Below are positions 8,831 through 59,966 of a stretch of 64,000 bases of DNA, piece after piece; the stretch's first letter is position 1; the number at the start of each line of letters is the position of its first letter. Below the pieces are notes generated by a model. The model was given only the letters and a program-made list of their open reading frames with translations. It searched no databases and was not told the DNA's origin. The position numbers were made by a program, and so were the translations under genes. Origin of the DNA: Flavobacteriia bacterium (GTDB lineage Bacteria > Bacteroidota > Bacteroidia > Flavobacteriales > Weeksellaceae); NCBI GenBank assembly GCA_019455045.1, contig JACFND010000001.1, positions 22,023-86,022 of the forward strand, written 5' to 3'.

Positions 8831-10243
8831 TTAATTTTGGATTAGATTAAATATGATTGACGGATAAGTACCCAATAAAATTACTGCAAACGACAGCAGG
8901 CCGAATACCAGATAGAGTATGGCCGGCATTCTTTTCGGTTTGTCCTTGATATGATTGGGCGAACCGAGCAAAATCGCGTTGTTCATTCTCCAGGTGTAAG
9001 CAGCCGAAAGGATGGCGCCGATACAGCCCATGACACACAAAATCGGATTGTAAAGGAACAATGCATTGAGCATCGAGAATTCACCGATAAAGTTTGAGGT
9101 CAGCGGCAGCGACAGATTTGACAGACAGAAAATCGTCCAGAAAACCGCAATCGCAGGATCGATCTTTGCCAGTCCTCTGACAGATTTCACATCGGTCACA
9201 CCGTATCTTCTGTGCATATAATCATAGCTCAACCACATGCCGAGCACTACGATACCGTGGCTGAACATTTGGAAATAAGCGCCTTTGATTCCGATTTCGG
9301 AATAAGTGAAGAGGCTCATAAAGATCAGCGCCAGGTGGGCAATCGAGCTGAATGCGATAATTCTTTTCAAATGATTTGATCTGAGTGCAATCAGCGATGC
9401 ATACACCAGACCGAATCCGACCACATACAGCAGCCAGTCAAAATTCAGTGATTTGATCGGGAACATTCCGATAAACCAATTGACCACTGCAAACAGCCCC
9501 ATCTTTGCCATCAGTGCACTGAGGATGACGGTTACAAAAGTATCCGATGCCTTGTAAACCGGCGGCTGCCAGGTGTGCAAAGGAAAGAGCGGAATTTTGA
9601 TTGCAAATGCGATCAGAAATAAAATCGGCAGCAGCTGCAGATCTTTGTATTGGGTGGTCAGTCCTTTGATGTCGCTCAAAAGATAACTTTCGGGCTGAAG
9701 GTGGAATCCGATATAAATGATTCCGGCCAGCATCAGGAACGAACCGAAGATTGTATAAATAAAGAAAGTGGTATTTGCTCTGACTTTGTTTTTTCCGCCC
9801 CAGATTCCGATCAGGAAGTAAATCGGTATCAAAACGATTTCCCAGAAGAAATAAAACAGCAGCAGATCCTGAGCAAGAAAAACTCCGTTCAGACCTGCAA
9901 ACATAATCAGCAGCAGACCGTAAAAATTATTTTTGTAATTCTTTTTAACCGAAATAAAATACAGGAACAAAAGCGAATAGACAAAGGTGGTGAGCATCAC
10001 CATGATGGCGCCCAGACCCGAAAAGTCGAGTGCAATATAGGTCTGTACATCTCCCATTTTGAACCAGGGCTGAGTGATCTCTTTCTGAATCGCACCCTCG
10101 CCGTTAAATGCGGCAAGCAGTGAGAAGATGAACAGATAAACGCTGATGGCTGTGCCTATAAAGCCAAGCGATTTCTTGTAAGAAGTGACCGCCAGACCTA
10201 CTCCAAATATCAAAGGCAATAAAATCAGTAATACTAAAAACAT
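8831..10243 (-). CDS. nuoM: NADH-quinone oxidoreductase subunit M
   Basis: FYFFWEIVLIP, IKIPLFPLHTW, IAFSSIAH, PLTSNFIGEF. Confidence 0.95.
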   Translation of the reverse strand: MFLVLLILLPLIFGVGLAVTSYKKSLGFIGTAISVYLFIFSLLAAFNGEGAIQKEITQPWFKMGDVQTYIALDFSGLGAIMVMLTTFVYSLLFLYFISVKKNYKNNFYGLLLIMFAGLNGVFLAQDLLLFYFFWEIVLIPIYFLIGIWGGKNKVRANTTFFIYTIFGSFLMLAGIIYIGFHLQPESYLLSDIKGLTTQYKDLQLLPILFLIAFAIKIPLFPLHTWQPPVYKASDTFVTVILSALMAKMGLFAVVNWFIGMFPIKSLNFDWLLYVVGFGLVYASLIALRSNHLKRIIAFSSIAHLALIFMSLFTYSEIGIKGAYFQMFSHGIVVLGMWLSYDYMHRRYGVTDVKSVRGLAKIDPAIAVFWTIFCLSNLSLPLTSNFIGEFSMLNALFLYNPILCVMGCIGAILSAAYTWRMNNAILLGSPNHIKDKPKRMPAILYLVFGLLSFAVILLGTYPSIIFNLIQN

Positions 10244-10255
10244 TCTTTCCGCTTT

Positions 10256-12136
10256 TTATAATATTCCAAAAAAGAAAACTCCAATTCCCGCTACGATTCC
10301 CAGTATCATCAGCAATATGTAAGTGCCGATATTTCCTGTCTGAATCGATTTTGTCTGTTTTGAGATAAACACAGACAGACTGCCCACACCGAATACGATC
10401 TGTGCAATCCCTGCTTTCTCAACATATTTTCTTAAAAAGGTACCCAGATTCTCGGTCGGCGTAATGACAGCCGCCTGATAGATTTCATCCACATACCATT
10501 TGTTTTTAAATAATTTCATAATACCCGAAGCTTCACCGTCGGTTTTGCCGTTGTACATTTTGTAGGTCAGCGCAATTGCACCGATTACAAATGCAAGCAA
10601 TGCGACCATCAGAATGATTTCGACCGAAGCCGAAACTGAATGTTCACCTTCATGAACACCGGTCACACCTGCCAGGAAATTGTTCAGTTTGTGTCCGTTG
10701 GCAGCAAAAACCGCAGGAATTCCGATGAATCCGCCGATAAATGACAATACGGCAAGTATCATCATCGGCACGGTCATGCTCGAAGGACTTTCATGCGGAT
10801 GAACTTCTTTGTTTCTCAGTTCGCCGTGGAAAGTCATAAAATACCATCTGAACATATAGAATGCAGTCAGTACCGAAACGATGAATCCGATGATCCAGAC
10901 TGCTTTGCTTCCGATAAACATATTGAGCAGCATTTCGTCTTTTGAGAAGAAACCGCTCAACGGAGGAATACCCGCAATCGCCAGACAGGCAATCAGCATG
11001 GTGATATTTGTTTTGGGCATCAGTTTTCTCAAACCGCCCATTTTGTTCATGTCCTGTTCGCCGCCCATTGCGTGGATGACAGAACCGGATCCCATAAACA
11101 GCAGTGCTTTGAAGAATGCGTGTGTGAGCACATGGAAAACCGCTGCGACATAAGCACCCATTCCGATGGCTGCGAACATCAGTCCCAATTGGGAAACGGT
11201 GGAGTAGGCGAGCACTTTTTTGATATCGTCCTGACGCATTGCGATGGTGGCTGTAATCAGTGCTGTGATGATACCGATCCATGCGACGATTCCTTTTGTA
11301 AACGGAACCATGTCAAACAGTTCATTGCATCTGGTCAGCATAAAGATACCTGCGGTCACCATGGTGGCAGCGTGGATCAACGCAGACACCGGAGTCGGTC
11401 CGGCCATCGCATCGGGCAGCCAGGTGAAGAGTGGAATCTGAGCAGATTTACCGGTTGCCGCCAAAAAGAGCAGCAGCGTGATTCCGATCAGCGCGCCTTC
11501 AGCCACATTTGCTGTGGTGAGCATGCTGAATACTTCTCTGTATTCGAGTGTGCCGAATTCTTTATAAATCCAAAACATTGCAATCAGAAAACCGATATCA
11601 CCGATACGGTTCATGATAAATGCTTTTCTTGCCGCAATTGTAAAATCCCAGTTGTGATACCAGAATCCGATCAGCAGATAGGAACAGAGTCCCACACCTT
11701 CCCAGCCGATGTACATCATCAGGAAGTTGCTGCCCATCACCAGAATCAGCATTGAAAAAATAAATAAATTAAAGAATGAAAAGAATTTTCCGAATCCTTC
11801 GTCTTCATTCATATAACCGACCGCATACACATGGATCAGAAATCCGACGCCTGTGATGATCAGCATAAAGAGGCTGGTCAGGGCATCGATCTGAAATGCA
11901 AACGGGATTTGTATGTTTTCGAAATTAAATATATCAAAGAAATGAAAGATTTGAGGTGCCGCGTCAGGTCCCGATGGAACTGCAAAAAACACCATCACCG
12001 ATAGGATAAAGCTGACGAATACCACACCCGGACCCAAAATTGAAATCAGGCTTTTGGGCAGTATATGTCTTCCCAGGCCGTTGATAACGAATCCGATGAA
12101 TGGTAAAAGCGGTATGAGCCAAATATAATTCTCCAT
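10256..12136 (-). CDS. nuoL: NADH-quinone oxidoreductase subunit L
   Basis: GWEGVGLCSYLLIGFW, GKSAQIPLFTWLPDAMAGPTPVSALIHAATMV. Confidence 0.97.
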   Translation of the reverse strand: MENYIWLIPLLPFIGFVINGLGRHILPKSLISILGPGVVFVSFILSVMVFFAVPSGPDAAPQIFHFFDIFNFENIQIPFAFQIDALTSLFMLIITGVGFLIHVYAVGYMNEDEGFGKFFSFFNLFIFSMLILVMGSNFLMMYIGWEGVGLCSYLLIGFWYHNWDFTIAARKAFIMNRIGDIGFLIAMFWIYKEFGTLEYREVFSMLTTANVAEGALIGITLLLFLAATGKSAQIPLFTWLPDAMAGPTPVSALIHAATMVTAGIFMLTRCNELFDMVPFTKGIVAWIGIITALITATIAMRQDDIKKVLAYSTVSQLGLMFAAIGMGAYVAAVFHVLTHAFFKALLFMGSGSVIHAMGGEQDMNKMGGLRKLMPKTNITMLIACLAIAGIPPLSGFFSKDEMLLNMFIGSKAVWIIGFIVSVLTAFYMFRWYFMTFHGELRNKEVHPHESPSSMTVPMMILAVLSFIGGFIGIPAVFAANGHKLNNFLAGVTGVHEGEHSVSASVEIILMVALLAFVIGAIALTYKMYNGKTDGEASGIMKLFKNKWYVDEIYQAAVITPTENLGTFLRKYVEKAGIAQIVFGVGSLSVFISKQTKSIQTGNIGTYILLMILGIVAGIGVFFFGIL

Positions 12137-55903: not shown

Positions 55904-55911
55904 TAACTTTG
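55904..55911 (+). promoter_or_regulatory. -7 box (TAACTTTG) of dnaX
   Basis: TAnnTTTG only 7 nt upstream of the ATG, so the leader would be very short. Confidence 0.55.
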
Positions 55912-55918
55912 TAATCCT

Positions 55919-57013
55919 ATGCAGAATTTTGTCGTATCGGCCCGAAAATACAGACCGCTTCGTTTTGAAGATGTGGTCGGGCAATCCGCTATCACAGAGA
56001 CTTTGGAGCAGGCGATCACCAATCACCAGCTCGCTCAGGCTTTGCTTTTTTGCGGTCCCAGAGGTGTCGGCAAAACCACCTGCGCAAGGATACTCGCCAG
56101 ACGAATCAACGAGGAAGCCGGAGGTGGGACCGACGGTGATGAAGATTTTGCATTCAACATTTTTGAACTCGATGCCGCGTCAAACAATTCGGTGGATGAC
56201 ATCAGAAATCTGATCGAACAGATTCGTTTTGCACCTCAGGTCGGAAAATACAAAGTGTATATCATCGACGAGGTTCACATGCTTTCGACACAGGCGTTCA
56301 ATGCATTTCTGAAAACGCTTGAAGAACCGCCGGCACATGCGATCTTTATTTTGGCAACCACCGAAAAACATAAAATCATCCCGACGATTTTGTCAAGATG
56401 TCAGATTTATGATTTCAAACGGATTTCGATCAAAGACATTCAGAATCATCTGATCATGATTGCAAGGGATGAAAATGTGGAATTTGAAGAGGATGCACTT
56501 CATCTGATCGCACAAAAGGCAGACGGCGCGCTGAGAGATGCACTTTCGACTTTTGACCGTATGGTGACTTTCACTTCGGGCAATCTCACGCTTGAAAAAG
56601 TGGCCGAAAATCTGAATGTGCTCGATTATGAATATTATTTCAAAATCACTGATGCAGCGCTGAAAAATGATATTTCGGAACTGCTGATTCAGTACAATGA
56701 AATCCTGAACAAAGGTTTTGACGGTCATGTGTTCATCAACGGTCTGGGCAGTCATTTCAGAGATCTGCTGGTGGCGAAGGTTCCAAAAACTTCAAATCTG
56801 CTTGAGGTCGGTGAAAGGACCAAACAAAAATATCTGCAGCAGGCAGTGGATTGCGATGTGAAATTTCTGACCAATGCAATAGAAATCTGCAATATGGCGG
56901 ATATGAACTACAAAGGGAGCAAAAACCAGCGGCTGACTGTCGAAATCGCTTTGATGCAGATCGGATCGCTGACCGCAGAAGACGAACGGATTAAAAAAAA
57001 AAGTTCAGAATAA
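55919..57013 (+). CDS. dnaX: DNA polymerase III gamma/tau, frame-0 product (364 aa, gamma-like)
   Basis: ARKYRP, GPRGVGKTT, ELDAASNNSVDDIR, IIDEVHML, LEEPP, SRCQ. Confidence 0.97.
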   Translation: MQNFVVSARKYRPLRFEDVVGQSAITETLEQAITNHQLAQALLFCGPRGVGKTTCARILARRINEEAGGGTDGDEDFAFNIFELDAASNNSVDDIRNLIEQIRFAPQVGKYKVYIIDEVHMLSTQAFNAFLKTLEEPPAHAIFILATTEKHKIIPTILSRCQIYDFKRISIKDIQNHLIMIARDENVEFEEDALHLIAQKADGALRDALSTFDRMVTFTSGNLTLEKVAENLNVLDYEYYFKITDAALKNDISELLIQYNEILNKGFDGHVFINGLGSHFRDLLVAKVPKTSNLLEVGERTKQKYLQQAVDCDVKFLTNAIEICNMADMNYKGSKNQRLTVEIALMQIGSLTAEDERIKKKSSE

Positions 57014-57642
57014 TCCCGCCGCCTGATTGGCAGCCCGATCCAATTCCAAAAAAATCTGAAAAACCCAAAAAAGAAGAACCCAAACCGGCACAGGACAAGC
57101 CTGTCGGAGAATCCCCGCAGGAAATTCAGAAACCCGAAGAACTCAAACCGGTCAGGGTGAGCAAACCTTTGGGAGCAAAACCTGAGACTGCGTTCAATCT
57201 GAAAAATCTGTTTGACAGTGTTGAATCTGAAAATTCGGAATCTGCTGACAACAGTGAAAAAGCTGCTGATGAATTCAGTTTTGAAACGCTCGAAAATCAT
57301 TGGAAAGAATTTTTGGAGAAACTGAACGTCGAAAATAAGATTGTGAGTTTCAATGCGCTTCAGTCGGGAAAACTCGTTTTAAAAGATGATTTTAAAATTG
57401 AAATTGAATTCAATTCTTCCACTCTGATATTTGAATTTGAACAAATCAAAGACAGACTGACCCTGTTCCTTCGCGAAAAACTCAACAATGAGGTGTTCGA
57501 ACTCATTCCGGTTGAGGTCGAGGGCAGATCTGTGAATTATATCAAATCCAAGGCTGAGATATTCAAAGAGATGGCCGAACGCAATCCGAACCTATTAAAA
57601 TTAAAAAACGAATTGGGATTGGACTATAATTCTAATGATTGA
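57001..57642 (+). CDS. dnaX: Tau C-terminal extension in the -1 frame (Pro/Lys/Glu linker plus folded C-domain); includes track ORF 57157-57642
   Basis: Open from AAG 57001 to TGA 57642, closed upstream by TAA at 56992-56994; ends MAERNPNLLKLKNELGLD. Confidence 0.75.
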   Translation, partial: KFRIIPPPDWQPDPIPKKSEKPKKEEPKPAQDKPVGESPQEIQKPEELKPVRVSKPLGAKPETAFNLKNLFDSVESENSESADNSEKAADEFSFETLENHWKEFLEKLNVENKIVSFNALQSGKLVLKDDFKIEIEFNSSTLIFEFEQIKDRLTLFLREKLNNEVFELIPVEVEGRSVNYIKSKAEIFKEMAERNPNLLKLKNELGLDYNSND

Positions 57643-59853: not shown

Positions 59854-59966
59854 TTGATTTTTTTCGAATTGTAAATTTAGACCGATACAATTCCTTATCC
59901 AAATCAAAACGAATTGAAATTTTATTCAATGAATTTTCGGAATGATTTTCAATTCTGTATTTTATT

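Follow-up and report, generated by a model that had tools for sequence, protein, structure and literature searches.

A split dnaX gene around a conserved A10 run in a Weeksellaceae bacterium, with tau probably made through transcriptional slippage

The dnaX gene described here, which is single-copy in its genome, starts at position 55,919 of a stretch of 64,000 nucleotides from contig JACFND010000001.1 (GenBank assembly GCA_019455045.1); the whole stretch is called the window, and all positions refer to it. The source organism is a wastewater flavobacterium of the family Weeksellaceae, probably a Moheibacter. The gene is divided between two reading frames that meet at a run of ten adenines (56993-57002), and positions 56990-57013 read ATT-A10-GTTCAGAATAA. 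Frame 0 extends from the ATG at 55919 to a TAA at 57011-57013, located three codons past the last all-A codon and 8 nucleotides past the run, and encodes 364 amino acids with the C-terminus ...ERIKKKSSE* (AEDERIKKKSSE). The -1 frame contains a TAA at 56992-56994 and is then free of stop codons until the TGA at 57640-57642; it starts KKKFRIIPPPDWQ... / KKKFRIIPPPDWQPDP... and comprises 213 codons when counted from the AAG at 57001. Joining 55919-57001 to 57001-57642 yields a predicted protein of 574 amino acids and 65.4 kDa with the junction peptide IKKKKFRIIPP; the short gamma-like form has 41.1 kDa. The original prediction had listed ATT-A10, the 364-residue frame 0, the -1 TAA at 56992, the 213 codons and about 574 residues for the joined product, all of which are borne out by sequence and translation. 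The features of the site, in which ORF stands for open reading frame and pLDDT for the predicted local distance difference test, are the following.

55919 to 57013, + strand: zero-frame dnaX ORF, gamma-like, domains I-III (ORF list, Pfam, TIGR02397)
56992 to 56994, + strand: TAA that closes the -1 frame directly 5' of the run and bars an earlier start of the tail ORF (translation of 56992-57642)
56993 to 57002, + strand: A10 slippery run, the recoding site (sequence, orthologues, DNA versus RNA assemblies)
57001 to 57642, + strand: -1-frame tau tail of 213 codons plus the stop TGA at 57640-57642, joined to residues 1-361
57004 to 57021, + strand: F-R-I-I-P-P motif, an instance of the Flavobacteriales DnaX box (F/Y)-I-I-P (shared by most orthologues, split or fused)
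57011 to 57013, + strand: zero-frame stop TAA that ends gamma, within the Ile-Ile pair ATA-ATC as read in the -1 frame (sequence)
57022 to 57267, + strand: Pro/Lys/Glu-rich linker, predicted to be disordered (AlphaFold2 pLDDT 51-75 over tail residues 1-90)
57024 to 57026, + strand: stop TGA of the +1 frame (in-silico translation of run-length variants)
57268 to 57615, + strand: folded C-terminal alpha/beta domain, the presumed equivalent of tau domain V (AlphaFold2)

Plain decoding of an A10 transcript of dnaX yields only the short gamma-like protein, and tau would need one extra A. In-silico translation of the other run lengths shows that A9 or A12 transcripts encode a gamma variant of 368-369 amino acids ending in ...KKKVQNNPAA. 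The slippery heptamer of the zero frame is A_AAA_AAA, followed by the codon AGU, and an AAG codon is found only in the -1 frame. The A_AAA_AAG originally read at the end of the run is correct as a description of the -1-frame codons; in zero-frame notation the site is A_AAA_AAA and does not correspond to the E. coli motif.

The two parts of the gene were analyzed separately at the protein level. In the 364-residue ORF, the Pfam domains DNA_pol3_delta2, DNAX_ATPase_lid and DNA_pol3_gamma3 span residues 22-351, the Pfam and NCBIfam domains together cover residues 6-351, and the match to TIGR02397 dnaX_nterm scores 382 bits. No match to the tail was obtained in the local Pfam copy. A precomputed match to the Pfam family PF28557 DUF8439 is on record for the tail ORF at 57157-57642, which is annotated at NCBI as a 'hypothetical protein' of 161 amino acids (Weeksellaceae bacterium, Moheibacter sp.). 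In a BLASTP comparison with a DnaX of 592 amino acids that is encoded by a single ORF in another Flavobacteriales family (L029), the tail aligns to residues 472-579 with 35% identity and an E-value of 9e-11. The fused protein matches the full-length model NF004046 in one stretch, residues 9-529, with 420 bits at a cut-off of 400. The proposal that the tail represents the C-terminus of DnaX was therefore confirmed by its homology to the C-terminus of single-ORF DnaX proteins. Given the precomputed match of the tail ORF, DUF8439 seems to correspond to the C-terminal domain of DnaX tau in Bacteroidota.

Tau organises the replisome and is essential. An AlphaFold2 model of the tail, computed from an alignment of 52 tails, places a folded domain behind the linker, with a pLDDT of mostly 93-98 at residues ~90-170 and of 71-94 up to residue ~205. 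Five invariant tail residues (W101, L161, N163, N195 and L207) are situated in or just past this domain. A Foldseek search of the model against the Protein Data Bank (PDB) returned nothing significant, the best E-value being not below 0.07, and a profile of the 52 tails produced nothing meaningful against PDB sequences. The weak Foldseek look-alikes were domain I of DnaA (4tps, TMt 0.62-0.69, root-mean-square deviation ~3 Å), DciA and the E. coli tau C-terminus (5fku_E). Since no significant fold match was obtained, the assignment to tau domain V rests on homology to full-length DnaX and not on the fold. The modeled fold would fit a KH-like replisome-interaction fold, the resemblance to DnaA domain I being weak, and the C-terminal domain presumably binds the alpha subunit of DNA polymerase III (Pol III) and the helicase.

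Gene callers and the NCBI annotation present the downstream part as a protein of its own, and Pfam treats the region as the stand-alone family DUF8439. Both would be compatible with two separate products, a gamma-like DnaX and a C-terminal protein of 161 amino acids initiated at GTG 57157, with no fused tau. This reading is very improbable. The first ATG, GTG or TTG codon of the -1 ORF is GTG 57157, and every possible start codon is preceded by the FRIIPP box and 51 open -1 codons, the (F/Y)-I-I-P box being located within a few codons 3' of the run in most split and fused orthologues. Among the relatives, the earliest start codon available to the tail frame is found anywhere from +6 to +128 codons, in some of them within the folded domain. 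A single open frame joins this tail to domains I-III in 69 orthologues, and one RNA-derived contig, L112, encodes the fused ORF of 574 residues. On sequence grounds, the position of the box upstream of all starts and the non-conserved position of these starts mean that the tail must be made as a fusion and not by independent initiation.

Homopolymers are classic sites of insertion and deletion errors, and the window derives from an assembly of 108 contigs. Nevertheless, a sequencing or assembly error in the run has a negligible probability, as has a decaying dnaX pseudogene. Seven DNA-type runs, drawn from different studies (X1, X2, X4, X7, X10, X13 and X19), have Logan contigs that span the run as A10 without a gap. 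Nine further assemblies that encode the identical ORF of 161 amino acids, two of them metagenome-assembled genomes (MAGs) at NCBI, likewise carry A10, at least one of these nine being a run already examined. All 16 DNA-derived assemblies agree on A10; the A11 that would have made the ORF continuous was found in none of them, and the early view that the split is no sequencing error has held. The same split recurs in 19 of the 20 species of the genus and in nearly all of the 49 genera of the family. Against a pseudogene stand the good sequence conservation of both dnaX parts among relatives and the fact that the gene is present as a single copy.

Conservation of the run and of the frame offset had been proposed as a check, and both are kept in the genus and through the family. 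The 19 species have A10 followed by GTTYAGRATAAT and the tail in the -1 frame, and the ATAAT arrangement at the zero-frame stop recurs throughout the genus. In the remaining species (L003, G007:C61, junction ~2575-2594), a MAG of 76% completeness, the sequence is CTT-A10-TTTAGAATAATTCC. The G after the run is absent there, which places the tail in the +1 frame; a run of A9 or A12 would be required for tau. Either the frame has truly changed within the genus, or the MAG is in error at this point. The family survey covered 201 genomes from 49 sampled genera, and dnaX was present in 196 of them. Among the rows listed, 149 of 150 have an open frame of 361-406 amino acids, in agreement with the original remark that short dnaX ORFs ending in KKK occur in other flavobacteria. 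The only fused family dnaX among these 150 rows, with 560 amino acids, is that of G162 (G162:C1:716875-717951), an apparent reversion to the in-frame, Thermus-like layout.

At the level of the order, all 110 Flavobacteriales loci analyzed contain a run of A9-A13, mostly A10, at codon ~353-362. The tail is in frame 0 in 69 of these loci, in frame -1 in 31 and in frame +1 in 10. Where the gene is fused (69 loci), a stop codon closes each of the other two frames within 0-17 codons, mostly within 5. It can be regarded as close to certain that programmed recoding genuinely takes place at this conserved run in dnaX, an essential gene. The proposed logic, in which gamma is the default product and tau arises via one additional A or a -1 shift, fits all the evidence and is supported.

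Two routes could lead to tau from such a site. In the favored one, to which a probability of about 75% is assigned, slippage of RNA polymerase is the main source. The polymerase would slip on the T10 template and produce mRNAs with A9 to A14. One extra A (A11, and equally A8 or A14) would bring the 213 downstream codons into frame, and ordinary translation would then yield the 574-residue tau with its FRIIPP box, disordered linker and folded C-terminal domain, the last presumably binding Pol III alpha and the helicase. Transcripts with A10 or A13 would give gamma, and those with A9 or A12 the gamma variant ending at TGA 57024. A minor share of tau may come from -1 ribosomal slippage on A_AAA_AAA. 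As slippage would set the transcript classes, the ratio of tau to gamma is proposed to follow mainly from the slippage spectrum of RNA polymerase.

The most direct evidence for this route comes from a comparison of RNA-derived with DNA-derived assemblies. The RNA evidence consists of assembler contigs and unitigs, not reads, and the proportions are rough. X27-X29 are RNA-Seq metatranscriptomes of activated sludge containing a strain that is ~94% identical. In X27 and X28, contigs from either side end precisely at the run; the unitigs of the branches carry A10 (98.5x) and A12 (21.6x) in X27, and A10 (122x), A11 (108x) and a +4 variant (19x) in X28. In X29 the contig L112 (11,932 nucleotides) can be read directly as ATT-A11-GTTCAGAATAATCCC (ATT-A11-GTTCAG); gene calling on this contig gives the fused 574-residue protein P0014. 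The variants A10, A11, A12 and A14 coexist on a single haplotype in the X27-X29 strain. Two other members of the protein cluster, P0015 (365 amino acids) and P0010 (370 amino acids), were considered as run-length variants and ruled out, as they are ordinary sequence variants.

The type of X43-X45 is not on record, and they were treated as RNA from their behavior: contigs begin or end at gene borders, some with adapter remnants, and the depth varies from 3 to 88 across adjacent genes. They have a pattern of single nucleotide polymorphisms in common with the DNA run X10, in which the region is a single contig of 22.7 kb with a uniform depth of 24.5x and A10. X43 contains A10 (12.9x) and A12 (8.5x) together with shared unitigs of at least 12 A's, X44 contains A11 (68.6x), and in X45 the contigs break at the run. 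X37, an RNA data set of low depth, has A9, and the DNA data set X7 from the same study has A10. A +3 variant is present in X25 at low depth; the numbers of X26 are identical, and it may be the same data set filed twice. Taken over all assemblies, the RNA type comprises A9, A10, A11, A12, A13 and A14, and the DNA type A10 only. Over 14 kb, the X43 contigs break within a gene only at the run, and in X28 every other within-gene break is a strain bubble. The comparison of A-counts in DNA and cDNA suggested at the outset, made here on contigs, gave A10 in DNA and A9-A14 in the RNA assemblies.

The conservation pattern points in the same direction. An invariant run with a drifting tail frame is, as judged from the orthologous sequences, what transcriptional slippage would predict, and the use of both shift directions is the criterion for transcriptional realignment in Antonov et al. 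(2013; PMC3711429). The genomic distribution of homopolymers was also recorded. In the 64-kb window the A10 run is the only A/T run of at least 9, compared to a mean of 14 matches in dinucleotide-preserving shuffles. The whole genome (2.58 Mb) contains 65 A/T runs of at least 9 and none of at least 11, with 5.3 of the latter expected from base composition. Runs of 6-8 are about three times over-represented on the same basis, 9-mers are about at expectation (57 vs. 46 expected) and 10-mers are below it (8 vs. 14 expected). Only 8 of the 65 runs are situated deep within long ORFs, and all eight are 9-mers. Several of the genomic 10-mers are found in A-rich 5' leaders, 2-4 nucleotides ahead of a start codon. 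Selection acts against long A/T runs throughout the genome, as would be expected with a slipping polymerase. Such a depletion of homopolymers has been linked to slippage-prone polymerases (Baranov et al., 2005; PMC1088944).

The other route is ribosomal. The main source of tau could be -1 programmed ribosomal frameshifting, or ribosome sliding on poly-A, during translation of templated A10 mRNA, with the RNA variants being artefacts or irrelevant. This is unlikely on balance, and it has several points in its favor. The zero frame offers the slippery heptamer A_AAA_AAA, the single tRNA-Lys of the genome has the anticodon UUU as in E. coli, and a modest hairpin starts 5 nucleotides past the run (-9.5 kcal/mol, z -2.3). 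The downstream z-score is also below -2 in 7 of 27 relatives, and the RNA variants could originate from slippage during reverse transcription (RT) or the polymerase chain reaction (PCR). In E. coli dnaX, -1 frameshifting at A_AAA_AAG (general form X_XXY_YYZ) needs an upstream Shine-Dalgarno-like element and a strong downstream stem-loop, 5-9 nucleotides from the heptamer. Neither stimulator is conserved at the site in the window. The weak hairpin that had been noted exists, but it has no counterpart even in a sister species of 98% identity (z -1.0), and among the 27 relatives the downstream stem-loop is not conserved (mean z -1.0), its position varying and its sequence showing no conservation. 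No Shine-Dalgarno-like GGAG or AGGA was found in the 18 nucleotides 5' of the run. An upstream hairpin in the nascent RNA was considered as a stimulator of transcriptional slippage and was ruled out: the 45 nucleotides upstream fold like shuffled sequences (mean z -0.13 over the 27 relatives), and their sequence is not conserved.

Further points are difficult to reconcile with a ribosomal -1 device, which leaves unexplained that, around one and the same run, 10 of the 110 orthologues require a +1 shift and 69 no shift at all. The whole A10 is conserved and not merely a heptamer, and the depth of A11 is equal to or above that of A10 in RNA assemblies, an amount that alone would supply tau. The site shares with E. 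coli dnaX the gene itself, the gamma/tau boundary, a site rich in lysine codons and the single tRNA-Lys(UUU). In E. coli, however, the frameshift product is gamma and not tau, the zero-frame heptamer of the window is A_AAA_AAA, and the orthologues use three frames; lacking conserved stimulators and a single shift direction, the site fails as an E. coli-type frameshift site. The occurrence of the tail in three frames around the same run, together with the lack of a conserved hairpin, favors transcriptional slippage over -1 frameshifting of the E. coli type. The recoding proposed for this gene was therefore retained with slippage as the preferred route, and the E. coli-like ribosomal shift to which A_AAA_AAG had hinted is less favored.

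Several observations nevertheless weigh against RNA polymerase slippage as the main source of tau. Two low-depth RNA-type assemblies, X32 (3.7x) and X36 (3.2x), and the 'WGA' library X5 (19.7x) show A10 only. Graph cleaning deletes paths, and A11 is absent in X27 and X43 and the sole path in X29 and X44. Slippage by RT or PCR during the preparation of cDNA libraries cannot be separated here from slippage of RNA polymerase. An A11 allele in the DNA of the X27-X29 strain is formally possible, the DNA used for comparison being from other samples. Among other long runs in L111 (three T9 and one T10), two of the T9 are spanned by RNA contigs that show no gap, and the strain sampled in the RNA runs does not have the T10 region; these runs therefore do not separate polymerase slippage from library slippage. 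The single tRNA-Lys(UUU) and the A_AAA_AAA heptamer mean that ribosomes could contribute.

An extension of the slippage reading is that slippage is so efficient, with A11 in RNA reaching about the abundance of A10, that it is almost neutral in which genomic frame the tau tail lies. This is a tentative proposal and rather doubtful. If true, it would explain why the tail of Flavobacteriales dnaX switches between frames 0, -1 and +1 while the run stays invariant, and how the Weeksellaceae, an entire family of about 49 genera, can subsist on a tau made wholly from non-templated transcripts. The differences between samples (A11 as the sole assembled path in X29 and X44, A10 as the predominant path in X27 and X43) would in that case hint at a ratio of tau to gamma that varies with the growth state, for example through nucleotide pools.

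The layout itself has been known since 2013. Antonov et al. (2013; NAR 41:6514, PMC3711429) described a 'reversed' dnaX with two ORFs, comprising 17 genes from 12 genera. The GeneTack dnaX cluster given there includes Flavobacterium johnsoniae, F. psychrophilum, Capnocytophaga ochracea, Cytophaga hutchinsonii, several Chlorobi and Coraliomargarita. Nine of the 17 genes carry A10 according to Supplementary Figure S3, those of the organisms just named among them, with no Weeksellaceae among those nine, and the authors inferred transcriptional realignment from an alignment with the Thermus site. The reversed arrangement is also mentioned by Atkins et al. (2016; PMC5009743). A search of the accessible literature found no experimental proof for this class and no experimental study of a split dnaX in Bacteroidota. 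The gene in the window resembles this class in that standard decoding gives a gamma-type product and recoding is needed for tau, in the position of A10 right after domain III, in the -1 frameshift at the DNA level and in the phylum. The context also matches, GA-A10-GTT... in F. johnsoniae corresponding to ATT-A10-GTTCAG in the window. It differs in belonging to the Weeksellaceae and in the length heterogeneity of the RNA-derived assemblies, which has no counterpart in DNA. The window is a Weeksellaceae addition to that class; the underlying biology had already been published, and the value added lies in the transcript-level evidence, at contig level, and in the family-wide survey. Run-length heterogeneity in public metatranscriptomes provides inexpensive support for a mechanism that, in the literature searched, was otherwise only inferred.

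Programmed transcriptional slippage is known from dnaX of Thermus thermophilus (Larsen et al., 2000, PNAS 97:1683, as described in PMC1088944 and PMC5009743). Sites of this type have an A/T run of about 9 or more for realignment of RNA polymerase, a length that the A10 run reaches. Common to both genes are a poly-A run at the gamma/tau boundary, heterogeneity in the number of A's in mRNA, nearby stops in the non-tau frames and an N-terminus shared by the two products. The in-frame layout of Thermus is that found in 69 of the 110 Flavobacteriales orthologues. In Thermus the A9 is in frame, so that the templated product is tau and the slipped one gamma, whereas in the window the templated product is gamma and the slipped one (+1 A) tau; the gene is a natural recoding example in which templated and slipped products can swap roles. 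Transcriptional slippage also joins two overlapping ORFs in mxiE of Shigella flexneri (PMC1088944). There, as in the window, a non-templated nucleotide at a homopolymer is needed for the longer functional product. Unlike dnaX, an essential housekeeping gene, mxiE is an unrelated regulator of a virulence system with a run read as U in the mRNA. If the slippage reading is true, every cell of the lineage depends on a transcription "error" for its tau. Because the tail is filed as a hypothetical protein or DUF8439, the annotation, essential-gene lists and proteome databases of Weeksellaceae and many Bacteroidota lack a full-length DnaX.

The surroundings of dnaX bear on its expression. The Bacteroidota -7 consensus is TAnnTTTG, and a candidate for this element lies immediately upstream of the gene.

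55904 to 55911, + strand: TAACTTTG, candidate Bacteroidota -7 promoter box, 8 nucleotides 5' of the dnaX ATG (sequence compared with the consensus)

The RNA contigs of X28, X43 and X44 all begin at 55926, which is 7 nucleotides within the dnaX ORF, and the dnaX mRNA may have no leader, or almost none. At the 3' end, the tau stop TGA at 57640-57642 overlaps the next gene, whose ATG lies at 57635 (sequence ATGATTGA). This gene encodes a peptidyl-prolyl isomerase of 314 amino acids with FKBP_N and FKBP_C domains and a lipoprotein-like N-terminus. RNA contigs are unbroken from the A-run to ~58572, and dnaX and the FKBP gene therefore appear to be co-transcribed. Any translational coupling between the two would be limited to ribosomes that read the tau frame.

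Two further length differences were recorded among the same data sets. A T7 run at 59858-59864, between or at the start of divergent ORFs, is T8 at full depth in a contig of X44 and T7 in X43 and X10. The T8 could be a DNA polymorphism at the sample level or another indel at the RNA level, and it is a caution against trusting indels of single contigs. In L111, a segment of 1198 nucleotides of the genome that contains the window, at 9632-10831 (G000:C10:101631-102830), is replaced by 29 nucleotides in the strain sampled in the DNA run X10 and the RNA-type run X44, an insertion/deletion polymorphism at the strain level.

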